From a virus (taxonomy: Duplodnaviria; Heunggongvirae; Uroviricota; Caudoviricetes): 6,934 bases of DNA. A program made the translations under genes and the position numbers. Of this stretch, positions 1 through 6,934 are shown in pieces (the stretch's first letter is position 1; every line of letters begins with the position of its first letter). The notes under the pieces are model-generated. The model was not told the origin of the DNA, did not search any database, and saw only the letters and a list, made by a program, of their open reading frames with translations. The stretch spans positions 1 through 6,934 of IMG/VR virus record IMGVR_UViG_2671180828_000012. One strand, 5' to 3'.

Positions 1-20
1 ATCAGACAGGCAGGATTATT

Positions 21-3000
21 TCAGCGCATATCATAGAGGAGGTCATGGTGGATAAGGGAAAAGAGATTCTTGCAGTACGAAATGCAGCCAGCAACGAATA
101 TGGCGGGATAAACTGTGAGGTGCAGTTTGAAGACGCGGTGAATGAAAAAGGGGAACAGGTATGGCTGCCGTATACTGCAACGGAACACATCGTTCATGAA
201 CAACTGATTCCCCTGCGCCACAAATAACGGCGTGGTGTTGCCGTCCTCCGGGTTAATCATCGCAATACGGTCAGCCAGCAGCAGTATGTTGCTCAGGGGC
301 TGGCCATCAGTATCCTCAATCCCCGCTCCAATACCGGCAACATAGGGTATGCCATTTTTTGTTTTCTGTACCTTCAGCATGTAAAGTGCAGCAAGGTCAT
401 CATTTGTGTCCTTCTGCACGCGCTGTATCTGCTGTATGGTGGCGCTCTGGTCCTCCAGCGTTTTACTGACCGTCTGTGTGATTTCATTGCGGGTTTCGGT
501 GATGGTGGTCTTCATCTCCGCCATCTCATCCGCAAGCTGGCTGTTGTCTATCAGCTCCCACAGCCCCTGAGCCAGATGCAGTTTTCCTATTTTTTCCCGA
601 AACAGCCCCAGATACCCTTCTGCATCATTGCTGGCCCGTCCACTGGCTTCAACAAAAGCAGATTTCCCCACCAGGTTAACGCTGCGTACATAAAACCAGA
701 AATCCTTCCCGGGCTTAATGTGCGGGCCGGAGACAGTCCACTGACTGCCAGTCCCCAGATAACGGGCAGATTTTTCCACCTGTGCCGTGTTCGTGATGCG
801 TTTTTCTGAGAACCAGAATTCAAACTGTACCGTCGGGTCATACACCGCAAGACGCGGGACCGCTGTTATCTGAAAATACCCCGGCGTCAGTTCAATGGTG
901 GCGGGTTTTGCTGGCGCGTTAATCCGGAAGGTGGTGGTGGCCGGTTCGCCCTGCTGGCCATAACTGTTAATTGCCCTGACTGTCAGGGTGTATTCCCCGA
1001 GCGGCAGACCACTGAAACGATGCTCTGTATCCGCAGTGATAGCGGTGGTCACCAGACGGCTGTCTTCTCCGCTTCCGCTGGTCAGTCGCAGACTGAAGCG
1101 CACCCCCTTCACCACCCGCGGCGTGTCCCATTTCGCCTGTGCCAGATACTGGCCGTCAGCTGCGCTCACCTCCACCGTCAGGTGCTGCACTGCCGGTGGG
1201 ATGACGCTGTTCAGGGAGCCTGACTGCGGCTCAAAGCGGGCACCGTTATCCACGATGGCTTCTTTTTCCGGTACGTGCTGCACTGCCGTGATGGCAAAGG
1301 TGCCGTCCGTGTTTTCCCGGATGGAGACACAGCGGAACAGGCGACGACGCAGTGACGGCAGGGAGAGTCCCCATACACCGTATGTCTCCACACCATCAGG
1401 CAGGGTGCTGACCTGTATCCGGTCCGGCGCGGGGTGTGCAGTGATGGCCACGCTCACCGGCTTACCGCTGCCGTTAATCAGGTTCACCGTGGCGGCACCG
1501 GTCTCCGGCAGGGTCACCTCACGGTCCAGTGTCAGGGTGCGGCTGGCGGCATCGATGGACAGGACACGTCCGCCGGTCATGGTCCCGGCATAGTCGTTAT
1601 CACAGATTTCAATAATGTCACCGGGTGTGTGACGCAGCCCCTGTGACCCGAGCGTGAAATCCACCGTCTGCGTTTCCAGCAGTCCGGTCTTTATCACCCA
1701 CAGCCCGGCACGGTGGGCCTGACCGCGACTGGTGCAGCCGAACGCATCCATCTTCAGCAGGTTGCGCCCGTAGCGCAGTATGGCTTCCGGGTCTTCCACC
1801 AGTTCCGTGGAGGTCTGCCAGCCGTTCTGCGGGTCGGTGTAATTCACCTCCACCGCCGTGTGCCGGTCCTTCAGGGCACTGAAGCTGTAGCGAAACCCCA
1901 CGCCGTTATCATCCACCACCACATCGCAGTTGGTGTACGGCCACACCACATCCGACAGGCGGTCCTGAACAAACGTCAGCATCTGGCCGTTCCATACCGG
2001 CATACAGCGCATCGCCGAGCAGAAATCACTGAGAACATCCCACGCCTTACGCTGTTGTGCCAGGTACGCATTGAAGGTCATCCGCGGCTCGGTGCCCCCG
2101 AAGCCATCCGGCACCATCTGGTCGCAGTACTGCCCGATGGCATACAGCGCCCACTTGTCCACATCCGCCGCCCCCAGACGTTTTCCCATGCCGTAGCGCG
2201 GGTGAGTCAGCATGTCCCACAGACACCAGGCCGGATTGTTGCTGTATGCCGGTTTCAGACTGCCGTCCCAGATACCACTGTACGTGCGTTTTTCCGGGTC
2301 ATAGTTTGACGGCACCTGGATGATGCGACCGCGGATATGGTAGTTCACCGTCATCTGCTGACCACCAAACTGCTCCGCATCCACCTGCAGCCCCACAATG
2401 GCCGTGTTCGGGTAGCACTGTTTCACATCGATAATTTCAGTGTACGATGACCAGAGCGTTCTGTTCTGCAACTGGTCCGTGGTGCTGTCCGCCGTCTCCC
2501 TGACCATCCGGATGTTAAAGGGCCGGGGCGGCAGATTATCCAGAATCACCGAGGCCAGGAACTGTGAGGTGGTCTTGCCGTTAATGGTGACGTCCTTTTC
2601 CGTCACCCAGCGACCATTACGCTGTAACTGAATCAGAATCCGGACAGAGGAAGGATTACGGTCGCCCTTTGACGTGGTCTCCACCAGTGACTGCACCCCG
2701 AAGGTCACCCGCAGGCGGTCAATGTTCGCGGACGTAATGGTGCGCGTCACCGGTTTTGCCTTCGTCACTTCCACGCCCAGTCCGGTTTCAGCTCCGGAGG
2801 ACTCAAAGCCTTCAGGTGGTGTCTGCTCCTGCTCCCCGGCGCGCCAGACCGCCGTCACACCGTGTATCACGGGATTACCGTCCGTGCCCGTCAGCGGGGT
2901 TTTGTTCACCAGAATACTCTGCAGGCCTTTCACCGGGCCTTCTATCGGTCCCTCACCAATCGCATCAATCACACTCATCATCTGCGTGGATTTGAGATTA

Positions 3001-3047
3001 TCCTTCGCCTCACGAGGCGTGTGTGCCTTACCGCCACCTTTTCCCAT
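21..3047 (-). CDS. J: Lambda J-like tail tip / host specificity protein, C-terminally truncated (1008 aa versus ~1130 aa in lambda)
   Basis: Translation starts MGKGGGKAHTPREAKDNLKSTQ and is collinear with lambda gpJ as I recall it for ~955 residues, through FVAQGNQLFMNDVF. The last 53 residues (RCSIRQPYLFPFF...) are unrelated and end at TGA 21-23. ATG at 3047-3045 with AGGGGAAGG upstream. Confidence 0.9.
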   Translation of the reverse strand: MGKGGGKAHTPREAKDNLKSTQMMSVIDAIGEGPIEGPVKGLQSILVNKTPLTGTDGNPVIHGVTAVWRAGEQEQTPPEGFESSGAETGLGVEVTKAKPVTRTITSANIDRLRVTFGVQSLVETTSKGDRNPSSVRILIQLQRNGRWVTEKDVTINGKTTSQFLASVILDNLPPRPFNIRMVRETADSTTDQLQNRTLWSSYTEIIDVKQCYPNTAIVGLQVDAEQFGGQQMTVNYHIRGRIIQVPSNYDPEKRTYSGIWDGSLKPAYSNNPAWCLWDMLTHPRYGMGKRLGAADVDKWALYAIGQYCDQMVPDGFGGTEPRMTFNAYLAQQRKAWDVLSDFCSAMRCMPVWNGQMLTFVQDRLSDVVWPYTNCDVVVDDNGVGFRYSFSALKDRHTAVEVNYTDPQNGWQTSTELVEDPEAILRYGRNLLKMDAFGCTSRGQAHRAGLWVIKTGLLETQTVDFTLGSQGLRHTPGDIIEICDNDYAGTMTGGRVLSIDAASRTLTLDREVTLPETGAATVNLINGSGKPVSVAITAHPAPDRIQVSTLPDGVETYGVWGLSLPSLRRRLFRCVSIRENTDGTFAITAVQHVPEKEAIVDNGARFEPQSGSLNSVIPPAVQHLTVEVSAADGQYLAQAKWDTPRVVKGVRFSLRLTSGSGEDSRLVTTAITADTEHRFSGLPLGEYTLTVRAINSYGQQGEPATTTFRINAPAKPATIELTPGYFQITAVPRLAVYDPTVQFEFWFSEKRITNTAQVEKSARYLGTGSQWTVSGPHIKPGKDFWFYVRSVNLVGKSAFVEASGRASNDAEGYLGLFREKIGKLHLAQGLWELIDNSQLADEMAEMKTTITETRNEITQTVSKTLEDQSATIQQIQRVQKDTNDDLAALYMLKVQKTKNGIPYVAGIGAGIEDTDGQPLSNILLLADRIAMINPEDGNTTPLFVAQGNQLFMNDVFRCSIRQPYLFPFFIHRVFKLHLTVYPAIFVAGCISYCKNLFSLIHHDLLYDMR
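45..227 (+). CDS. Hypothetical protein, probable 5' fragment of a gene truncated at the prophage deletion junction (60 aa; last ~14 codons lie in antisense J-homologous DNA)
   Basis: ATG at 45 (or GTG at 48) directly preceded by AGAGGAGG (35-42), a strong Shine-Dalgarno. The ORF is convergent with J and runs ~45 nt past the point where J homology begins (~183), so the C-terminus is probably junk from fusion. No family recognised. Confidence 0.35.
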   Translation: MVDKGKEILAVRNAASNEYGGINCEVQFEDAVNEKGEQVWLPYTATEHIVHEQLIPLRHK

Positions 3048-3150
3048 ACAGCCTTCCCCTGAATAAATTAACCGCCACTTGCCATTCCGTACAGAAGTCG
3101 GATATCCTTCGCCCGAAAAGCATGAAACACATTTCTGCCATGCTAAAGAG

Positions 3151-3186
3151 AAACCCCGGTATCAGCAGATACCGGGGTTTTCTTTC
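3151..3186. terminator. Perfect 13-bp inverted repeat with 4-nt loop, flanked by T-rich sequence on both strands (putative bidirectional intrinsic terminator)
   Basis: aaaccccggtatc (3151-3163), loop agca, gataccggggttt (3168-3180) is a perfect 13-bp stem. It is followed by tctttc on the plus strand and by ctcttta on the minus strand. It lies ~100 nt upstream of the J start codon. Confidence 0.5.
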
Positions 3187-3252
3187 ATGCCCACCGATAA
3201 TCCTGTTGGTTAAAACCGGTAATGGCATAAAAATTCTGAATATCTTCACATT

Positions 3253-3280
3253 TTCACAAACTGACCGTGGCGCGTATAAT
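3253..3280 (+). promoter_or_regulatory. Sigma70-like promoter: -35 TTCACA (3253-3258), 16-bp spacer, -10 TATAAT (3275-3280), with an A/T-rich upstream tract
   Basis: Consensus -10 hexamer TATAAT and a 5/6 match to TTGACA at 16-bp spacing. The A/T-rich stretch 3219-3245 is UP-element-like. Predicted start near G3287. Confidence 0.4.
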
Positions 3281-3286
3281 TTCTCT

Positions 3287-3385
3287 GCGTTAATTTTTTT
3301 GTCGTGATATAAGAATAATTCCTTACACTTAATCTTCGTAACTCTCCCGCAGTTCCTGTCCGCGATCACTGCGGGATTTTTTTAT
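3287..3385 (+). ncRNA. Candidate ~100-nt small RNA (moron-like), antisense to the late tail operon in the I-J intergenic insert
   Basis: Bounded by the promoter at 3253-3280 and the intrinsic terminator at 3345-3392. No ATG-initiated ORF lies between them. The body is AU-rich with C/U-rich tracts (UUCCUUACACUU, CUCUCCC) and ends in a GC stem plus U-tract, as in Hfq-type sRNAs. Ends are predicted, not measured. Confidence 0.3.
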
Positions 3386-3392
3386 TCTTTTT
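3345..3392 (+). terminator. Rho-independent terminator: 9-bp GC-rich stem, 14-nt loop, U-tract
   Basis: tcccgcagt (3345-3353) pairs perfectly with actgcggga (3368-3376), followed by tttttttattcttttt. It is only terminator-like in the plus orientation; the minus-strand flank is not U-rich. Confidence 0.55.
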
Positions 3393-3609
3393 ACCCCTGC
3401 CGCCCGATAACCACGACCTTTCCGCCCCCGCCTTCATCACGGGTGCTGATGTCCTGGGATATACGGCGGGAGCCAACCAGCATTTCACCGGAGATATTCA
3501 CGCAGGGGAAATATCTTTCCCCCTCCGGCGTGCTTACCACGAAGCCGCACGACTCCGCAGGCGCACACCGCCGGGCATGCGCCAGAATCGCTGATTCAGT
3601 CTGTGTCAT
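3391..3609 (-). pseudogene. In-frame fusion remnant of tail assembly genes K (N-terminal ~42 aa) and I (C-terminal ~30 aa)
   Basis: ORF from ATG 3609 encodes MTQTESAILAHARRCAPAESCGFVVSTPEGERYFPCVNISGE, matching the lambda gpK N-terminus as recalled, then MLVGSRRISQDISTRDEGGGGKVVVIGRQG, which resembles the lambda gpI C-terminus (...GEMRVGSRVVSQEISTADEGDGGQVVVIGR). Stop TAA at 3393-3391. The K catalytic region and most of I are missing. Confidence 0.7.
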
Positions 3610-3619
3610 AAACCGGGAT

Positions 3620-4318
3620 TTACTGCGAAAGTTTATTAATGGAAAGGAAACCGCCAAAATTGCCGACATTCCTGCGCAGTTCACACCCGCGCATGCACTT
3701 GCTGCATCTGTCCTTACGGATATCCGTGGTGGGTTTATCGAACTCATCCGCCACAGCCCCGCCCGTGTAACCACACTCATCAGAGCGGTAGGTCCACATA
3801 CAGGTGTTCGCCAGCATGATACGACCGGGAAACAGCGCCCCGTCCGTCTCGGTCGGTGTGGCCAGCACAAACGAGGCCGTCATGGCTGTCAGCTGCGACA
3901 TCTGCTCCACCACCCAGCGGTCACTCAACTCCTGCTCCGGGTCCGCCGCCGGATTGCCCGCAACGAAATTCACCGCATCCAGAAAACGGGCATACACCCG
4001 GCGGCGGACCACCGTGGCCCCCACCAGACTCTGCAGGTCTTCCGCCATCCCGGTGACCAGACCGAACAGATTGGACACCGTCAGCGACGGTCTGGCACTG
4101 CTGCCCTTCCCGCTCATCTCAAAACCGCTGCCGTCAATCGGGTATGCCTGATATTGCCGCCCCTGCCAGGTGACCGGCTCCCCTTTTTCATTCAGCTCAT
4201 TACAGAAAAAATACCGCTCACCACCCTGCACCGTCAGGTCAATTTCCCAGAGTACCACCCGCGGTGACTGCTCTGATTTAACCGACTCGCTCAGACTTTC
4301 TTCGTGAATATCCTGCAT
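3620..4318 (-). CDS. L: Lambda L-like tail tip assembly protein (232 aa)
   Basis: MQDIHEESLSE...VVLWEIDLT...GGERYFFCNE...GNFGGFLSINKLSQ is full length and collinear with lambda gpL. The ATG overlaps the M stop codon (ATGA), as in lambda. Confidence 0.93.
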   Translation of the reverse strand: MQDIHEESLSESVKSEQSPRVVLWEIDLTVQGGERYFFCNELNEKGEPVTWQGRQYQAYPIDGSGFEMSGKGSSARPSLTVSNLFGLVTGMAEDLQSLVGATVVRRRVYARFLDAVNFVAGNPAADPEQELSDRWVVEQMSQLTAMTASFVLATPTETDGALFPGRIMLANTCMWTYRSDECGYTGGAVADEFDKPTTDIRKDRCSKCMRGCELRRNVGNFGGFLSINKLSQ

Positions 4319-4647
4319 CAGTTCACCACCTGCTTAAACTCCGCGCTGAACTCAACGCGCAACATCCCGACCCGCGCAGACCACCCGGCACAGGTCACCT
4401 TTATCTGCCGGTATGCATAGGGTGGCTTCCACAAAAATGCCTTCCAGCCACCGTGCTCTGCCAGGAACGCTTCCAGATGCCGGGCCTCCTCCCGGGTCAC
4501 GGAAAGCGTCACCCTGTATGTTTTCAGGTCAGCATTCAGCCCTGCCGCCATACGCTGTGAGTACCCGTCACCAAAACGCACTTCACGCACCGATGGCTGC
4601 GAGTTCACCTCCATATCCGGCTTCACTTTCCAGCGAAAGGTTTTCAT
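4318..4647 (-). CDS. M: Lambda M-like tail tip assembly protein (109 aa)
   Basis: MKTFRWKVKPDMEV...VRFGDGYSQR...MLRVEFSAEFKQVVN is collinear with lambda gpM. The start overlaps the H' stop (ATGA) and the stop overlaps the L start. Confidence 0.93.
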   Translation of the reverse strand: MKTFRWKVKPDMEVNSQPSVREVRFGDGYSQRMAAGLNADLKTYRVTLSVTREEARHLEAFLAEHGGWKAFLWKPPYAYRQIKVTCAGWSARVGMLRVEFSAEFKQVVN

Positions 4648-5840
4648 CCACCGCTCCCTGATAACATACCGCCATCACGCAACTGCAGCCGGAGTTCATC
4701 CTGTGCCCCCTTGCGGGCCATCTCATACACCGCTTTCATCAGCTGCGGCCCTGCCCGCCCGTTGGGGCCGTCGTTCTGAATCACCACGTGATTGTTCTGA
4801 TTAAAATTAATGCCTTCCGCCCGCCGCATCTGCGCCGGACTTCCGGCACCGCCGACATAACCACCTTCCGCATAGCCCCGCATCAGGCGGTACAGATTGC
4901 CGACACCAATCCGGCTGGTCGCCTCCTTCGTGAAGACAAACTCCCCGCGATGAACAATCCCCGCAGGTTCATATTTACCCCCCGTCCCCGTAAATCCCCC
5001 GGTCGCGAAATGGAAGTTCGCCGCCGCAGCCTGAATGGCCGTCCCCGTGGAGGCAGACGCACCACCACCGAAAGCACCGCCAATGGCGCTGCCGATACTC
5101 CCGACTATCCCCACCATCGCCTGCTTCAGAAAAATCTCTGTCAGCATGGACAGCACAGAACGGGTGAAACCACGCCAGTTCTGTTCGCTGCCGGTCAGCA
5201 TCGCTGCCATATTCTGTGCAATACCGTCAAAGGTCTGCGTGGCCGCGTTTTTAACCTGCGAAAAACTGTCCGTCGCACTTTCCGCCCACTCGCCCCAGCC
5301 GGACTTCATCCCGGCCATCCAGCTTCCACGAAGCTGCTCCTCCGCAGACCAGGTGTTCTTCAGTGCAGATGTGGCCTTCGCCAGCGCAGCCGGATTATCA
5401 CCGTACACCTCACGAAGGCGCTGCTCTTCCGACTCCCGCTGCGCCTGACGGTCGGTGAGTCCGCGGGCTTTTGCGCTGATTGCCGCCTGCTTCGCGCTCT
5501 GCTGCTGTTCAAACCGCGCCGCCTGCTGTGCCAGCTCATTCAGCCGTTTCTGGTGTTCAATCTTGTCGCCCAGCTCAGCCAGCTGGCGTTTGTACTCCAG
5601 CGTTTCTTTCTCATGGGCCAGCAGGGATTTTTCCTGCTCAGATACCATGCGGCATTTAGCGGCATTCATCGTACACTCAACGGTTAGCTCTTCATTCGTG
5701 GCATTCACCTGAAAGGTCCGGGAGTGTAATTGCGTACATTTACCACTGAACGAACCTTCAACAAGAACACGACCACGCTGCAAAATACGGAACGGAATTG
5801 TTCCCTGAAAAGGCTTTACGGTTACCAGTAATTTCTTCAT
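4644..5840 (-). CDS. H: Chimeric tape-measure protein: foreign ~61-aa N-terminal module fused in frame to the C-terminal ~335 aa of a lambda H-like tape measure (398 aa)
   Basis: From SEQEKSLLAHEKETLEYKRQLAELG to the end (...KAVYEMARKGAQDELRLQLRDGGMLSGSGG) it is collinear with the lambda gpH C-terminal third as recalled. The N-terminus MKKLLVTVKPFQGTIPFRILQRGRVLVEGSFSGKCTQLHSRTFQVNATNEELTVECTMNAAKCRM is unrelated. ATG at 5840 has GGAG 7 nt upstream. The listed ORF start at 5858 is a TTG and less likely. Confidence 0.8.
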   Translation of the reverse strand: MKKLLVTVKPFQGTIPFRILQRGRVLVEGSFSGKCTQLHSRTFQVNATNEELTVECTMNAAKCRMVSEQEKSLLAHEKETLEYKRQLAELGDKIEHQKRLNELAQQAARFEQQQSAKQAAISAKARGLTDRQAQRESEEQRLREVYGDNPAALAKATSALKNTWSAEEQLRGSWMAGMKSGWGEWAESATDSFSQVKNAATQTFDGIAQNMAAMLTGSEQNWRGFTRSVLSMLTEIFLKQAMVGIVGSIGSAIGGAFGGGASASTGTAIQAAAANFHFATGGFTGTGGKYEPAGIVHRGEFVFTKEATSRIGVGNLYRLMRGYAEGGYVGGAGSPAQMRRAEGINFNQNNHVVIQNDGPNGRAGPQLMKAVYEMARKGAQDELRLQLRDGGMLSGSGG

Positions 5841-5863: not shown

Positions 5864-6331
5864 CTAGTTAATACACTGAGTGCGGATATAGTCCTGCGCC
5901 CCTTCCAGTTGCTTCTGCATTGTCATCAACCGCTCTCTGAGGGTGAAATAATCCCGTTCAGCGGTGTCTGCCAGTCGGGGGCCGGTTGCATTATCCACGC
6001 GGGCGGTGCCGGTGGCTTCACGCACGGAACCTGGACAGGTGGCGTTGATACGCAGGCTGCGGCGACCAGCGGCAACGTCAGCGCGCAGAGTTTCATTTTC
6101 AGCTCTCGCATCGGCTAACTCCTTTGTGTATTTTTCATCCAGCGCAACAACATCACGCTGACGCTGCTGCATGTCAGTAATGGTTGTGTTTGCCAGCTCC
6201 AGCTCTCTGGCTTTTTTATCGCGCTGCGCTTTGTAGGTGATGGCGTTATCGCGGTAATGATTCAGCCCCAGACTAAGCACACCACAGGCTACCAGCAGGA
6301 CAATAATCACCACACACAGAACACGGTTCAT
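5864..6331 (-). CDS. Rz: Rz-like i-spanin (inner-membrane spanin subunit, 155 aa)
   Basis: [48 protein letters not shown]...[29 protein letters not shown] is collinear with lambda Rz: N-terminal transmembrane segment then coiled-coil periplasmic domain. ATG at 6331; the longer ORF listed to 6415 is an upstream extension. Confidence 0.9.
5926..6111 (-). CDS. Rz1: Rz1-like o-spanin (outer-membrane lipoprotein), fully embedded in the +1 frame of Rz
   Basis: [61 protein letters not shown] has a signal peptide with lipobox-like AAAC and a proline-rich body, and is collinear with lambda Rz1. Confidence 0.85.
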
Positions 6332-6332
6332 A

Positions 6333-6419
6333 TCACCACCAACGGATTGCCCAGACCAGAACAGCAATGGCCACAATACGAATGGCAAATGCCATTGCCC
6401 GAATAAGTTCAGCACTCAT
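6333..6419 (-). CDS. Possible 28-aa hydrophobic peptide ([28 protein letters not shown]) whose stop lies 1 nt before the Rz start
   Basis: ATG at 6419-6417, TGA at 6335-6333, Rz ATG at 6331. The product is essentially one transmembrane helix. The RBS is weak (AAAAAG) and the frame is open a further ~30 codons upstream without an ATG, so it may be a gene remnant. Confidence 0.2.
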
Positions 6420-6613: not shown

Positions 6614-6646
6614 GTTCTCCCTTGCCTTATCCAAGGTCAGAAACAC

Positions 6647-6690
6647 AAAACCCCGCTTGCAGCCAACAAACGGGGTTTTTACTTTTATTC
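6647..6690. terminator. GC-rich hairpin flanked by T-runs on both strands (bidirectional intrinsic terminator), ~30 nt upstream of the 60-aa ORF
   Basis: aaaaccccg (6647-6655) pairs with cggggtttt (6671-6679) around a 15-nt loop, followed by ttacttttattc on plus and by ttttgtgtttctgacc on minus. Its position relative to the lysis genes recalls lambda tR', but no convincing upstream late promoter was found. Confidence 0.4.
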
Positions 6691-6702
6691 ACTTAGTTTT
6701 TG

Positions 6703-6934
6703 TTAGTTCGCAGGATTTCGTGTTATCCGTCCGTGTGAGCAAACCGCATTTTTCAGCAAAATATTCTGCTTATCTGTCAATTCCCCAGCACGCCAGCGCA
6801 CTCTCCTGGTCGCGACGGGATACCTGACCGTAACAGTTGTTTGAGCGAATACGGCAGTCTCTGCCACCGTCCTTAATCCACCAGCGAATCGCTTCGCATG
6901 CTCCCCTGCGATCACCTGCATTAATTCGTCTGTA
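6703..6934 (-). CDS. 3' end of an ORF entering from beyond the right edge (at least 76 codons); unknown function
   Basis: Open frame from the window edge to TAA at 6705-6703 (...ELTDKQNILLKNAVCSHGRITRNPAN). In a lambdoid layout this slot would hold the Q antiterminator or a nin-region gene, but I see no Q-like zinc-finger motif. The internal ATG at 6921 has no Shine-Dalgarno. Confidence 0.25.
   Translation of the reverse strand, partial: TDELMQVIAGEHAKRFAGGLRTVAETAVFAQTTVTVRYPVATRRVRWRAGELTDKQNILLKNAVCSHGRITRNPAN

Follow-up and report, generated by a model that had tools for sequence, protein, structure and literature searches.

How does a reading frame that begins as the lambda tail gene K come to end as its neighbour I, and does its product do anything? 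The question is raised by the window, by which we mean the whole of the 6,934 nt of DNA analysed here, a complete draft contig (CDQN01000124.1 of GCA_000938575.1) that is recorded in two samples. On its minus strand, at 3391..3609, lies an open reading frame of 72 codons (ATG at 3609-3607, stop codon TAA at 3393-3391) with the translation MTQTESAILAHARRCAPAESCGFVVSTPEGERYFPCVNISGEMLVGSRRISQDISTRDEGGGGKVVVIGRQG*. A preliminary description of the window had taken this frame for an in-frame K::I fusion left behind by an internal deletion. Our analysis arrives at the same reading in a more specific form: with a probability of about 0.92, the fusion is the by-product of one recent 1,103-bp illegitimate deletion in a lambdoid prophage.

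A reading frame with two parents

To characterize the frame, we compared its product with the K and I proteins of lambda and of a closely related undeleted allele (L003, described below). Residues 1-42 are those of K in L003 (42/42 identical) and residues 41-72 are amino acids 162-193 of I in the same allele, Gly41-Glu42 being common to the two parts. A PHROGs search splits the product between K families (residues 1-42) and I families (residues 41-71). When aligned with lambda, residues 41-70 matched gpI 194-223 with 23/30 identities (77%, E=1e-12), and the C-terminal part also matched the gpI chains in PDB entries 8IYK, 8K35 and 9E7M. Residues 1-42 are, by our reading of the lambda translation, identical to the codons (45) that lie just 3' of L. 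The fusion starts 10 nt after the L stop codon and thus occupies the place of K, directly downstream of L, and the sequence upstream of its start is the same as in the parental allele. The 72-aa in-frame K::I frame of the preliminary description is therefore real, with an exact translation composed of K(1-42) and the last 30 residues of I, and the alignment that it had proposed as a check places those 30 residues in gpI.

At the nucleotide level, the part that derives unambiguously from K spans 3487..3609 on the minus strand (codons 1-41 minus the last two, ambiguous, bases) and is 100% identical to L003 3692-3816. The part that derives from I spans 3391..3484, also on the minus strand; it comprises the last 30 I codons and the stop codon, corresponds to lambda gpI 194-223 and is identical to L003. 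The deletion junction lies between them, at 3485..3490 (minus strand). The frame was left uncalled by the gene callers in both assemblies that carry it, and because gene callers skip it, an exact look-up of the 72-aa product returned no record.

A single clean deletion from an undeleted allele

The undeleted allele was found by looking up the unusual J product of the window, which L003 encodes in identical form. L003 is a 127-kb metagenome scaffold in which K (247 aa), I (193 aa) and the tape-measure gene H (870 aa) are intact. On the K side of the junction, window and L003 show 0 mismatches in 2,160 bp; on the I/J side there is a single mismatch in 3,490 bp, a T/G difference that falls inside the junction repeat itself. 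The window allele is L003 minus exactly 1,103 bp (L003 3817-4919). Since both flanks are identical to one intact allele, one deletion of 1,103 bp explains the fusion. No foreign DNA is present at the join, nor any IS or att sequence, and the single junction is set in an otherwise identical parent. This demonstrates that the fusion is the product of a single clean internal deletion. The comparison with intact relatives that the preliminary description had called for gave the same picture among complete E. coli genomes, where the best intact relative (L001, strain 23CRST047) aligns with the window in two collinear blocks of 98.0-98.6% identity that overlap by 6 nt, the ~1.1 kb between the blocks being missing from the window.

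A base-by-base three-way comparison located the breakpoint. On the coding strand, K reads ...TCCGGTGA/GCCGG and I reads ...TACGGGGA/AATGCTG (the slash marks the break), and the window reads ...TCCGGTGAAATGCTG. The two parents share the imperfect repeat CGG[T/G]GA at the junction, with an exact GA at 3485-3486. The T at 3487 is of the K type and the A at 3484 is of the I type, which places the crossover in the GA. The joined codons are GGT GAG (Gly-Glu) in the codon 42 region of K and GGG GAA in I, 32 residues before the end of I; the claim that the junction lies in frame on a shared Gly-Glu is thus confirmed by L003. The K and I frames are offset by 2 and 1103 mod 3 = 2, and for this reason the fusion is in frame, an outcome with a prior of 1 in 3.

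Could K have come from one prophage and I from another, joined by recombination? Lambdoid prophages are mosaic and recombine often, and relatives have the I-J spacer in common to varying extents. However, the 2.2 kb on one side of the junction and the 3.5 kb on the other are 100% identical to L003, a single contiguous allele, and the join offers no homology beyond 2-6 nt for a homologous exchange, which leaves next to no room for a mixed origin.

We then asked how widely the junction is distributed. The same junction is present on a 14.5-kb contig of a second assembly (L004, GCA_000939695.1), set apart from the window by a single SNP at 4806. It is found in at least two, and probably three, draft assemblies; all of the deleted-allele sequences are short-read draft contigs and may stem from one project. 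Elsewhere it was absent: when the 219-bp ORF was searched by megablast, none of the 13,565 K or I places in 5,426 complete E. coli genomes spanned the junction, and none of the 185 matching phage records did so either. Scans for the exact junction pattern gave 0 matches in GTDB representative genomes, 0 in IMG/VR and 0 in JGI metagenome contigs.

These data also bear on whether the junction exists in any genome at all, as K and I sequences from a single lambdoid prophage, or from two in the same cell, might have been put together by a short-read assembler. The window is a draft contig that ends in repeated phage sequence, and repeats are plentiful, the number of K or I places per E. coli genome having a median of 2 and a maximum of 21. 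Against this, the exact identity between K and I at the join extends over just 2 nt (5 of 6 in the imperfect repeat), which is much shorter than any assembler k-mer; both flanks match one allele, L003; and the junction was recovered again in a second assembly with a SNP difference and in a further sample. An artefact is on these grounds extremely improbable.

A different objection is that the 72-aa frame might be a natural short K-family gene belonging to a functional phage lineage, an outcome under which the preliminary description would have given up the fusion. A 76-aa family of this kind does exist, phrog_7305, and its first 42 positions match the ORF with E=2e-26. Yet phrog_7305 matches none of the I-derived half, and judging from its length and position it is probably the out-of-frame N-terminal K ORF of lambda-type records. 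Moreover, no phage record and no complete E. coli genome covers at least 80% of the ORF in a single place, and the near-identical undeleted allele proves derivation by deletion. We give this alternative practically no weight, and no short K variant of the proposed kind turned up among intact phages in the phage records or in the complete E. coli genomes.

The lambda records themselves show a difference in this region. In NC_001416, the codons of the K N-terminus (MTQTES...ISGEPEA; L006 1134-1276, that is lambda 14133-14275) precede the annotated K of 199 aa and are not in its frame. Compared with the K homologues of 247 aa, lambda is without one G (GGAGGC-TATTT), and the N-terminal K ORF there has 76 codons. 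K is annotated from an internal start in an independent lambda deposit (KT232076) as well. The 76-aa phrog_7305 probably represents the short ORF that results from this frame difference in lambda K.

As to how the 1,103 bp were lost, E. coli is known to undergo RecA-independent deletions between short repeats, for example at the lacI deletion hot spots and by replication slippage. The K-I junction resembles such events in being single and clean with one repeat copy kept, and a neighbouring deletion (orf74::H, below) has a 4-nt repeat. It differs from them in the brevity of its repeat (2 exact nt, 5/6) for a span of 1.1 kb, so that chance is possible. To gauge this by simulation, we placed 200,000 pairs of K-I breakpoints at random on L003. 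Of these pairs, 17% had an exact microhomology of at least 2 nt (P about 0.17) and 3% had a 5-of-6 window (P about 0.03). As the exact repeat is only 2 nt and the probabilities are of this order, a microhomology mechanism for the K-I deletion is plausible and modestly supported. One copy of CGG[T/G]GA was retained, with the crossover inside the GA, and the most likely route would be RecA-independent slipped mispairing or end-joining at the short repeat. Of the proposal that one microhomology-mediated deletion made the fusion, the single deletion therefore stands, and the microhomology (exact for GA, imperfect at 5/6) is weakly supported.

Domains lost, the rest of the remnant and the fate of the fusion

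What remains of K and I in the fusion was assessed from their domains. Parental K carries a Prok-JAB domain (residues 3-97) and an NlpC/P60 (C40 peptidase) domain (PF00877, residues 111-224). Its JAMM motif, VHSHPAGLPWLSEAD at 67-81, takes the form H68-x-H70...S77-x-x-D80 (HSHP...SEAD, 68-80) and lies wholly inside the deleted segment, HSHP being residues 68-71. The K-derived part of the fusion corresponds to the first third of Prok-JAB without the HxH...S..D motif. When searched against PF14464 (Prok-JAB), the fusion matched over residues 3-39 only and scored 22.2 bits, below the cut-off of 25; it had no Pfam match to NlpC/P60, and no NCBIfam model matched it. The fusion is thus predicted to keep only the first beta-alpha unit of the K JAB/MPN fold, with no HxH/S..D metal site. 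Compared with lambda gpK, it has the same N-terminus (42 residues) and the same position after L, and lacks residues 43-247, that is, the JAMM motif, the remaining JAB and the whole of NlpC/P60. The preliminary description was correct on the loss of the catalytic region with its HSHP motif.

The loss on the I side is as extensive as had been described, nearly all of the gene, with the last 30 residues remaining. Parental I has an N-terminal Lambda_tail_I domain (PF06805), which a Pfam search of the fusion did not find; the deletion also removes the hydrophobic segment and most of the plug region. In lambda, gpI residues 135-223 make up a trimeric plug by which the gpH C-terminus is held in the lumen of the tail tip, and residues 137-152 are the hydrophobic segment (PMC10721106). 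Only the equivalent of 194-223 is left of this plug region in the fusion. Set against lambda gpI, then, the last 30 residues of the fusion are 77% identical to 194-223, and the Lambda_tail_I domain, the 137-152 segment and the plug residues 135-193 resolved by cryo-EM are missing. In lambda, gpK is absent from virions (PMC10721106) and tail assembly requires gpK (PMC12617516). Judged by its domain content, the fusion could supply neither K nor I function. The preliminary description was right that the tail-tip assembly pathway cannot work, though the point is moot, as all head and tube genes are missing from the prophage as well.

The remainder of the window shows why. The tail genes of the prophage are on the minus strand, where the coding order is Rz/Rz1, the orf74::H ORF, M, L, the fusion ORF, a 343-bp spacer and J, so that the lysis genes are now directly upstream of the tail remnant. 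Rz, a spanin gene, occupies 5864..6415 (Pfam Phage_lysis, 1.6e-49), with Rz1 embedded in it at 5926-6111 (Pfam Rz1, 4.3e-21). A weak match to the Rfam rimP leader on the plus strand at 6615-6704 (27.6 bits against a gathering score of 47, E=0.27) sits in the lysis-region end of the window and is most likely due to chance. The tail gene M (4318..4647, 109 aa; Pfam Phage_min_tail, E=3.7e-38) and the tail tip gene L (3620..4318, 232 aa; Pfam Phage_tail_L, E=5.5e-92) are intact.

Between Rz and M lies a second fusion, orf74::H (4644..5840, 398 aa), which consists of ~65 aa of orf74 followed by H from aa ~538 to 870. orf74 is the small gene after Rz, and in related prophages it is normally followed by the terminase genes. 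Lysis-region homology ends at 5641 and H homology starts at 5644; the junction reads ...CGCATGGTATC/TGAGCAGG, shares TATC (5641-5644) and is in frame. The deletion removed the terminase and head genes, Z, U, V, G and T, and everything up to H aa ~538. An exact microhomology of 4 nt such as TATC has a theoretical P of about 0.016, and the orf74::H deletion fits the same class of illegitimate recombination as the K-I deletion. Every contig with the deleted allele carries both deletions.

The tail tip gene J (21..3047) is truncated, matching Pfam Phage_Tail_Tip at profile positions 2-84 of 139 only. Its homology ends at window position 182 (~aa 955 of ~1,157), after which 53 unrelated residues follow, and J is thereby without its C-terminal receptor-binding end. 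Because L003 shares this lesion, the J truncation predates the K-I deletion. The idea of one deletion rather than gradual decay thus holds for the K-I lesion and fails for the locus, given the orf74::H deletion and the truncation of J. Altogether, the prophage is defective and non-viable independently of the K-I deletion.

Cryptic or defective lambdoid prophages are known from E. coli and Shigella, among them DLP12, Rac, Qin and many defective O157 Sp prophages. Like these, the remnant has a lysis cassette joined to partial tail genes and has undergone multiple independent deletions or rearrangements, and its place in the chromosome, next to potB, is fixed; in L003 and L004 the flanking chromosomal DNA (potB, potA, pepT, roxA, phoQP, purB) is ~99% identical to E. 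coli. Unlike these, the present allele is rare and very young, with zero substitutions relative to an allele in which H, K and I are intact.

Since the prophage is dead independently, the fusion ORF is best regarded as neutral debris of ordinary, very recent prophage decay, and nothing in the sequence indicates a function. The preliminary description had held that the frame keeps its start context and could be translated, and the upstream context is indeed unchanged from the parent. If late transcription reaches the ORF, translation may for that reason occur by coupling to L.

One might instead suppose that the in-frame state was selected, either to avoid Rho-dependent polarity on L, J and the tail-fibre genes or for an interfering peptide, one that keeps the J-binding strands of the gpI C-terminus and disturbs tail-tip assembly of superinfecting lambdoid phages. 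Each of the two deletions joins its genes in frame, L, M and J(1-955) are still open, the start context of the fusion is unchanged, and gpI contacts gpJ by beta-sheet augmentation (PMC10721106). However, two in-frame junctions arise by chance with P = 1/9, which is mildly unusual and not significant. Furthermore, just 2-3 closely related assemblies and 0/5,426 complete genomes carry the deleted allele, which is thus rare and shows no sign of spread or retention, and zero substitutions have accumulated since the event. Selection in either form is thus very unlikely. The specific proposal that the 72-aa peptide docks on gpJ of superinfecting or co-resident lambdoid phages and poisons their tail-tip assembly is highly improbable; if it were true, a dead prophage would provide interference at the level of assembly, and the in-frame state of both deletions would reflect selection and not luck.

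For the reading of neutral debris, the kind of event, prophage decay by deletion, is already well documented. What the locus offers is a tidy textbook case of one decay step, with the parental allele still circulating, the breakpoint known to 2 nt and zero later substitutions. In annotation, the fusion ORF is best marked as a pseudogene remnant of K/I and not as a gene.

The I-J spacer, the left end of the window and the start of I

The 343-bp spacer between I and J (3048..3390, no strand assigned), with its antisense promoter/terminator unit, may deserve more attention than the fusion. The same 343-bp gap is present in L001, showing that it was not made by the deletion, and the spacer is found in 1,445 of the 5,426 complete E. 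coli genomes. It is absent from lambda, in which the I-J gap is 60 bp, and it is unannotated in every record shown. A promoter scan identified a near-consensus sigma-70 promoter-like site on the plus strand at 3253-3280 (TTCACA-16-TATAAT, 11/12), and an intrinsic terminator (CCCGCAG...CTGCGGG plus T7) lies on the same strand at 3359-3375, followed by its T-run. Both are antisense to the tail operon, and in an alignment of diverged copies they are conserved while the body between them varies. On this basis, the plus-strand segment 3253-3385 is a candidate for a small RNA of ~100 nt. Rfam searches of the whole window and of the spacer gave nothing near gathering scores, no positional match to the named prophage sRNAs (AgvB, Pas family) was seen in the literature, and the literal spacer sequence was not found there. 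The spacer also contains a ~40-nt palindromic or inverted-repeat element at 3145-3185, which gave a self-reverse BLAST match with the corresponding region of L001; several unrelated Rfam hairpin sRNA models match it weakly, far below their gathering scores.

At the left end of the window (region 1-227, plus strand), a 404-aa tail-fibre gene (L004 8595-9809) runs on the strand opposite to J and ends at window position 36. It is followed by an AGGAGG Shine-Dalgarno sequence and then by the N-terminus of the tail-fibre-associated family phrog_1141 (window 45-181, profile positions 2-41). The family's C-terminal part (DUF4376, positions 63-193) lies at L004 10007-10411 in the opposite orientation, which implies that an inversion or other rearrangement divided the gene and cut J short. 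For window 1-181, megablast found nothing in the 5,426 complete E. coli genomes, and neither plasmids nor, by tblastn, phages gave a match; L004 8600-9987 had no megablast match in the best-ranked complete E. coli genomes. The origin of window 1-181 is given only by PHROGs, as the N-terminus of this tail-fibre-associated family.

Finally, gene I in intact relatives is annotated from a GTG codon, giving 193 aa (L003 4333-4432 region). Its frame is open further upstream to an ATG (MATTNAFCLASPPLARICLHGDLQRFGRR...), a start that matches the N-terminus of lambda gpI. From this ATG, I would have 226 aa and overlap K by ~100 nt, as in lambda. The first profile position that I matches in Pfam is 26, as would be expected if the annotation of the gene is truncated.
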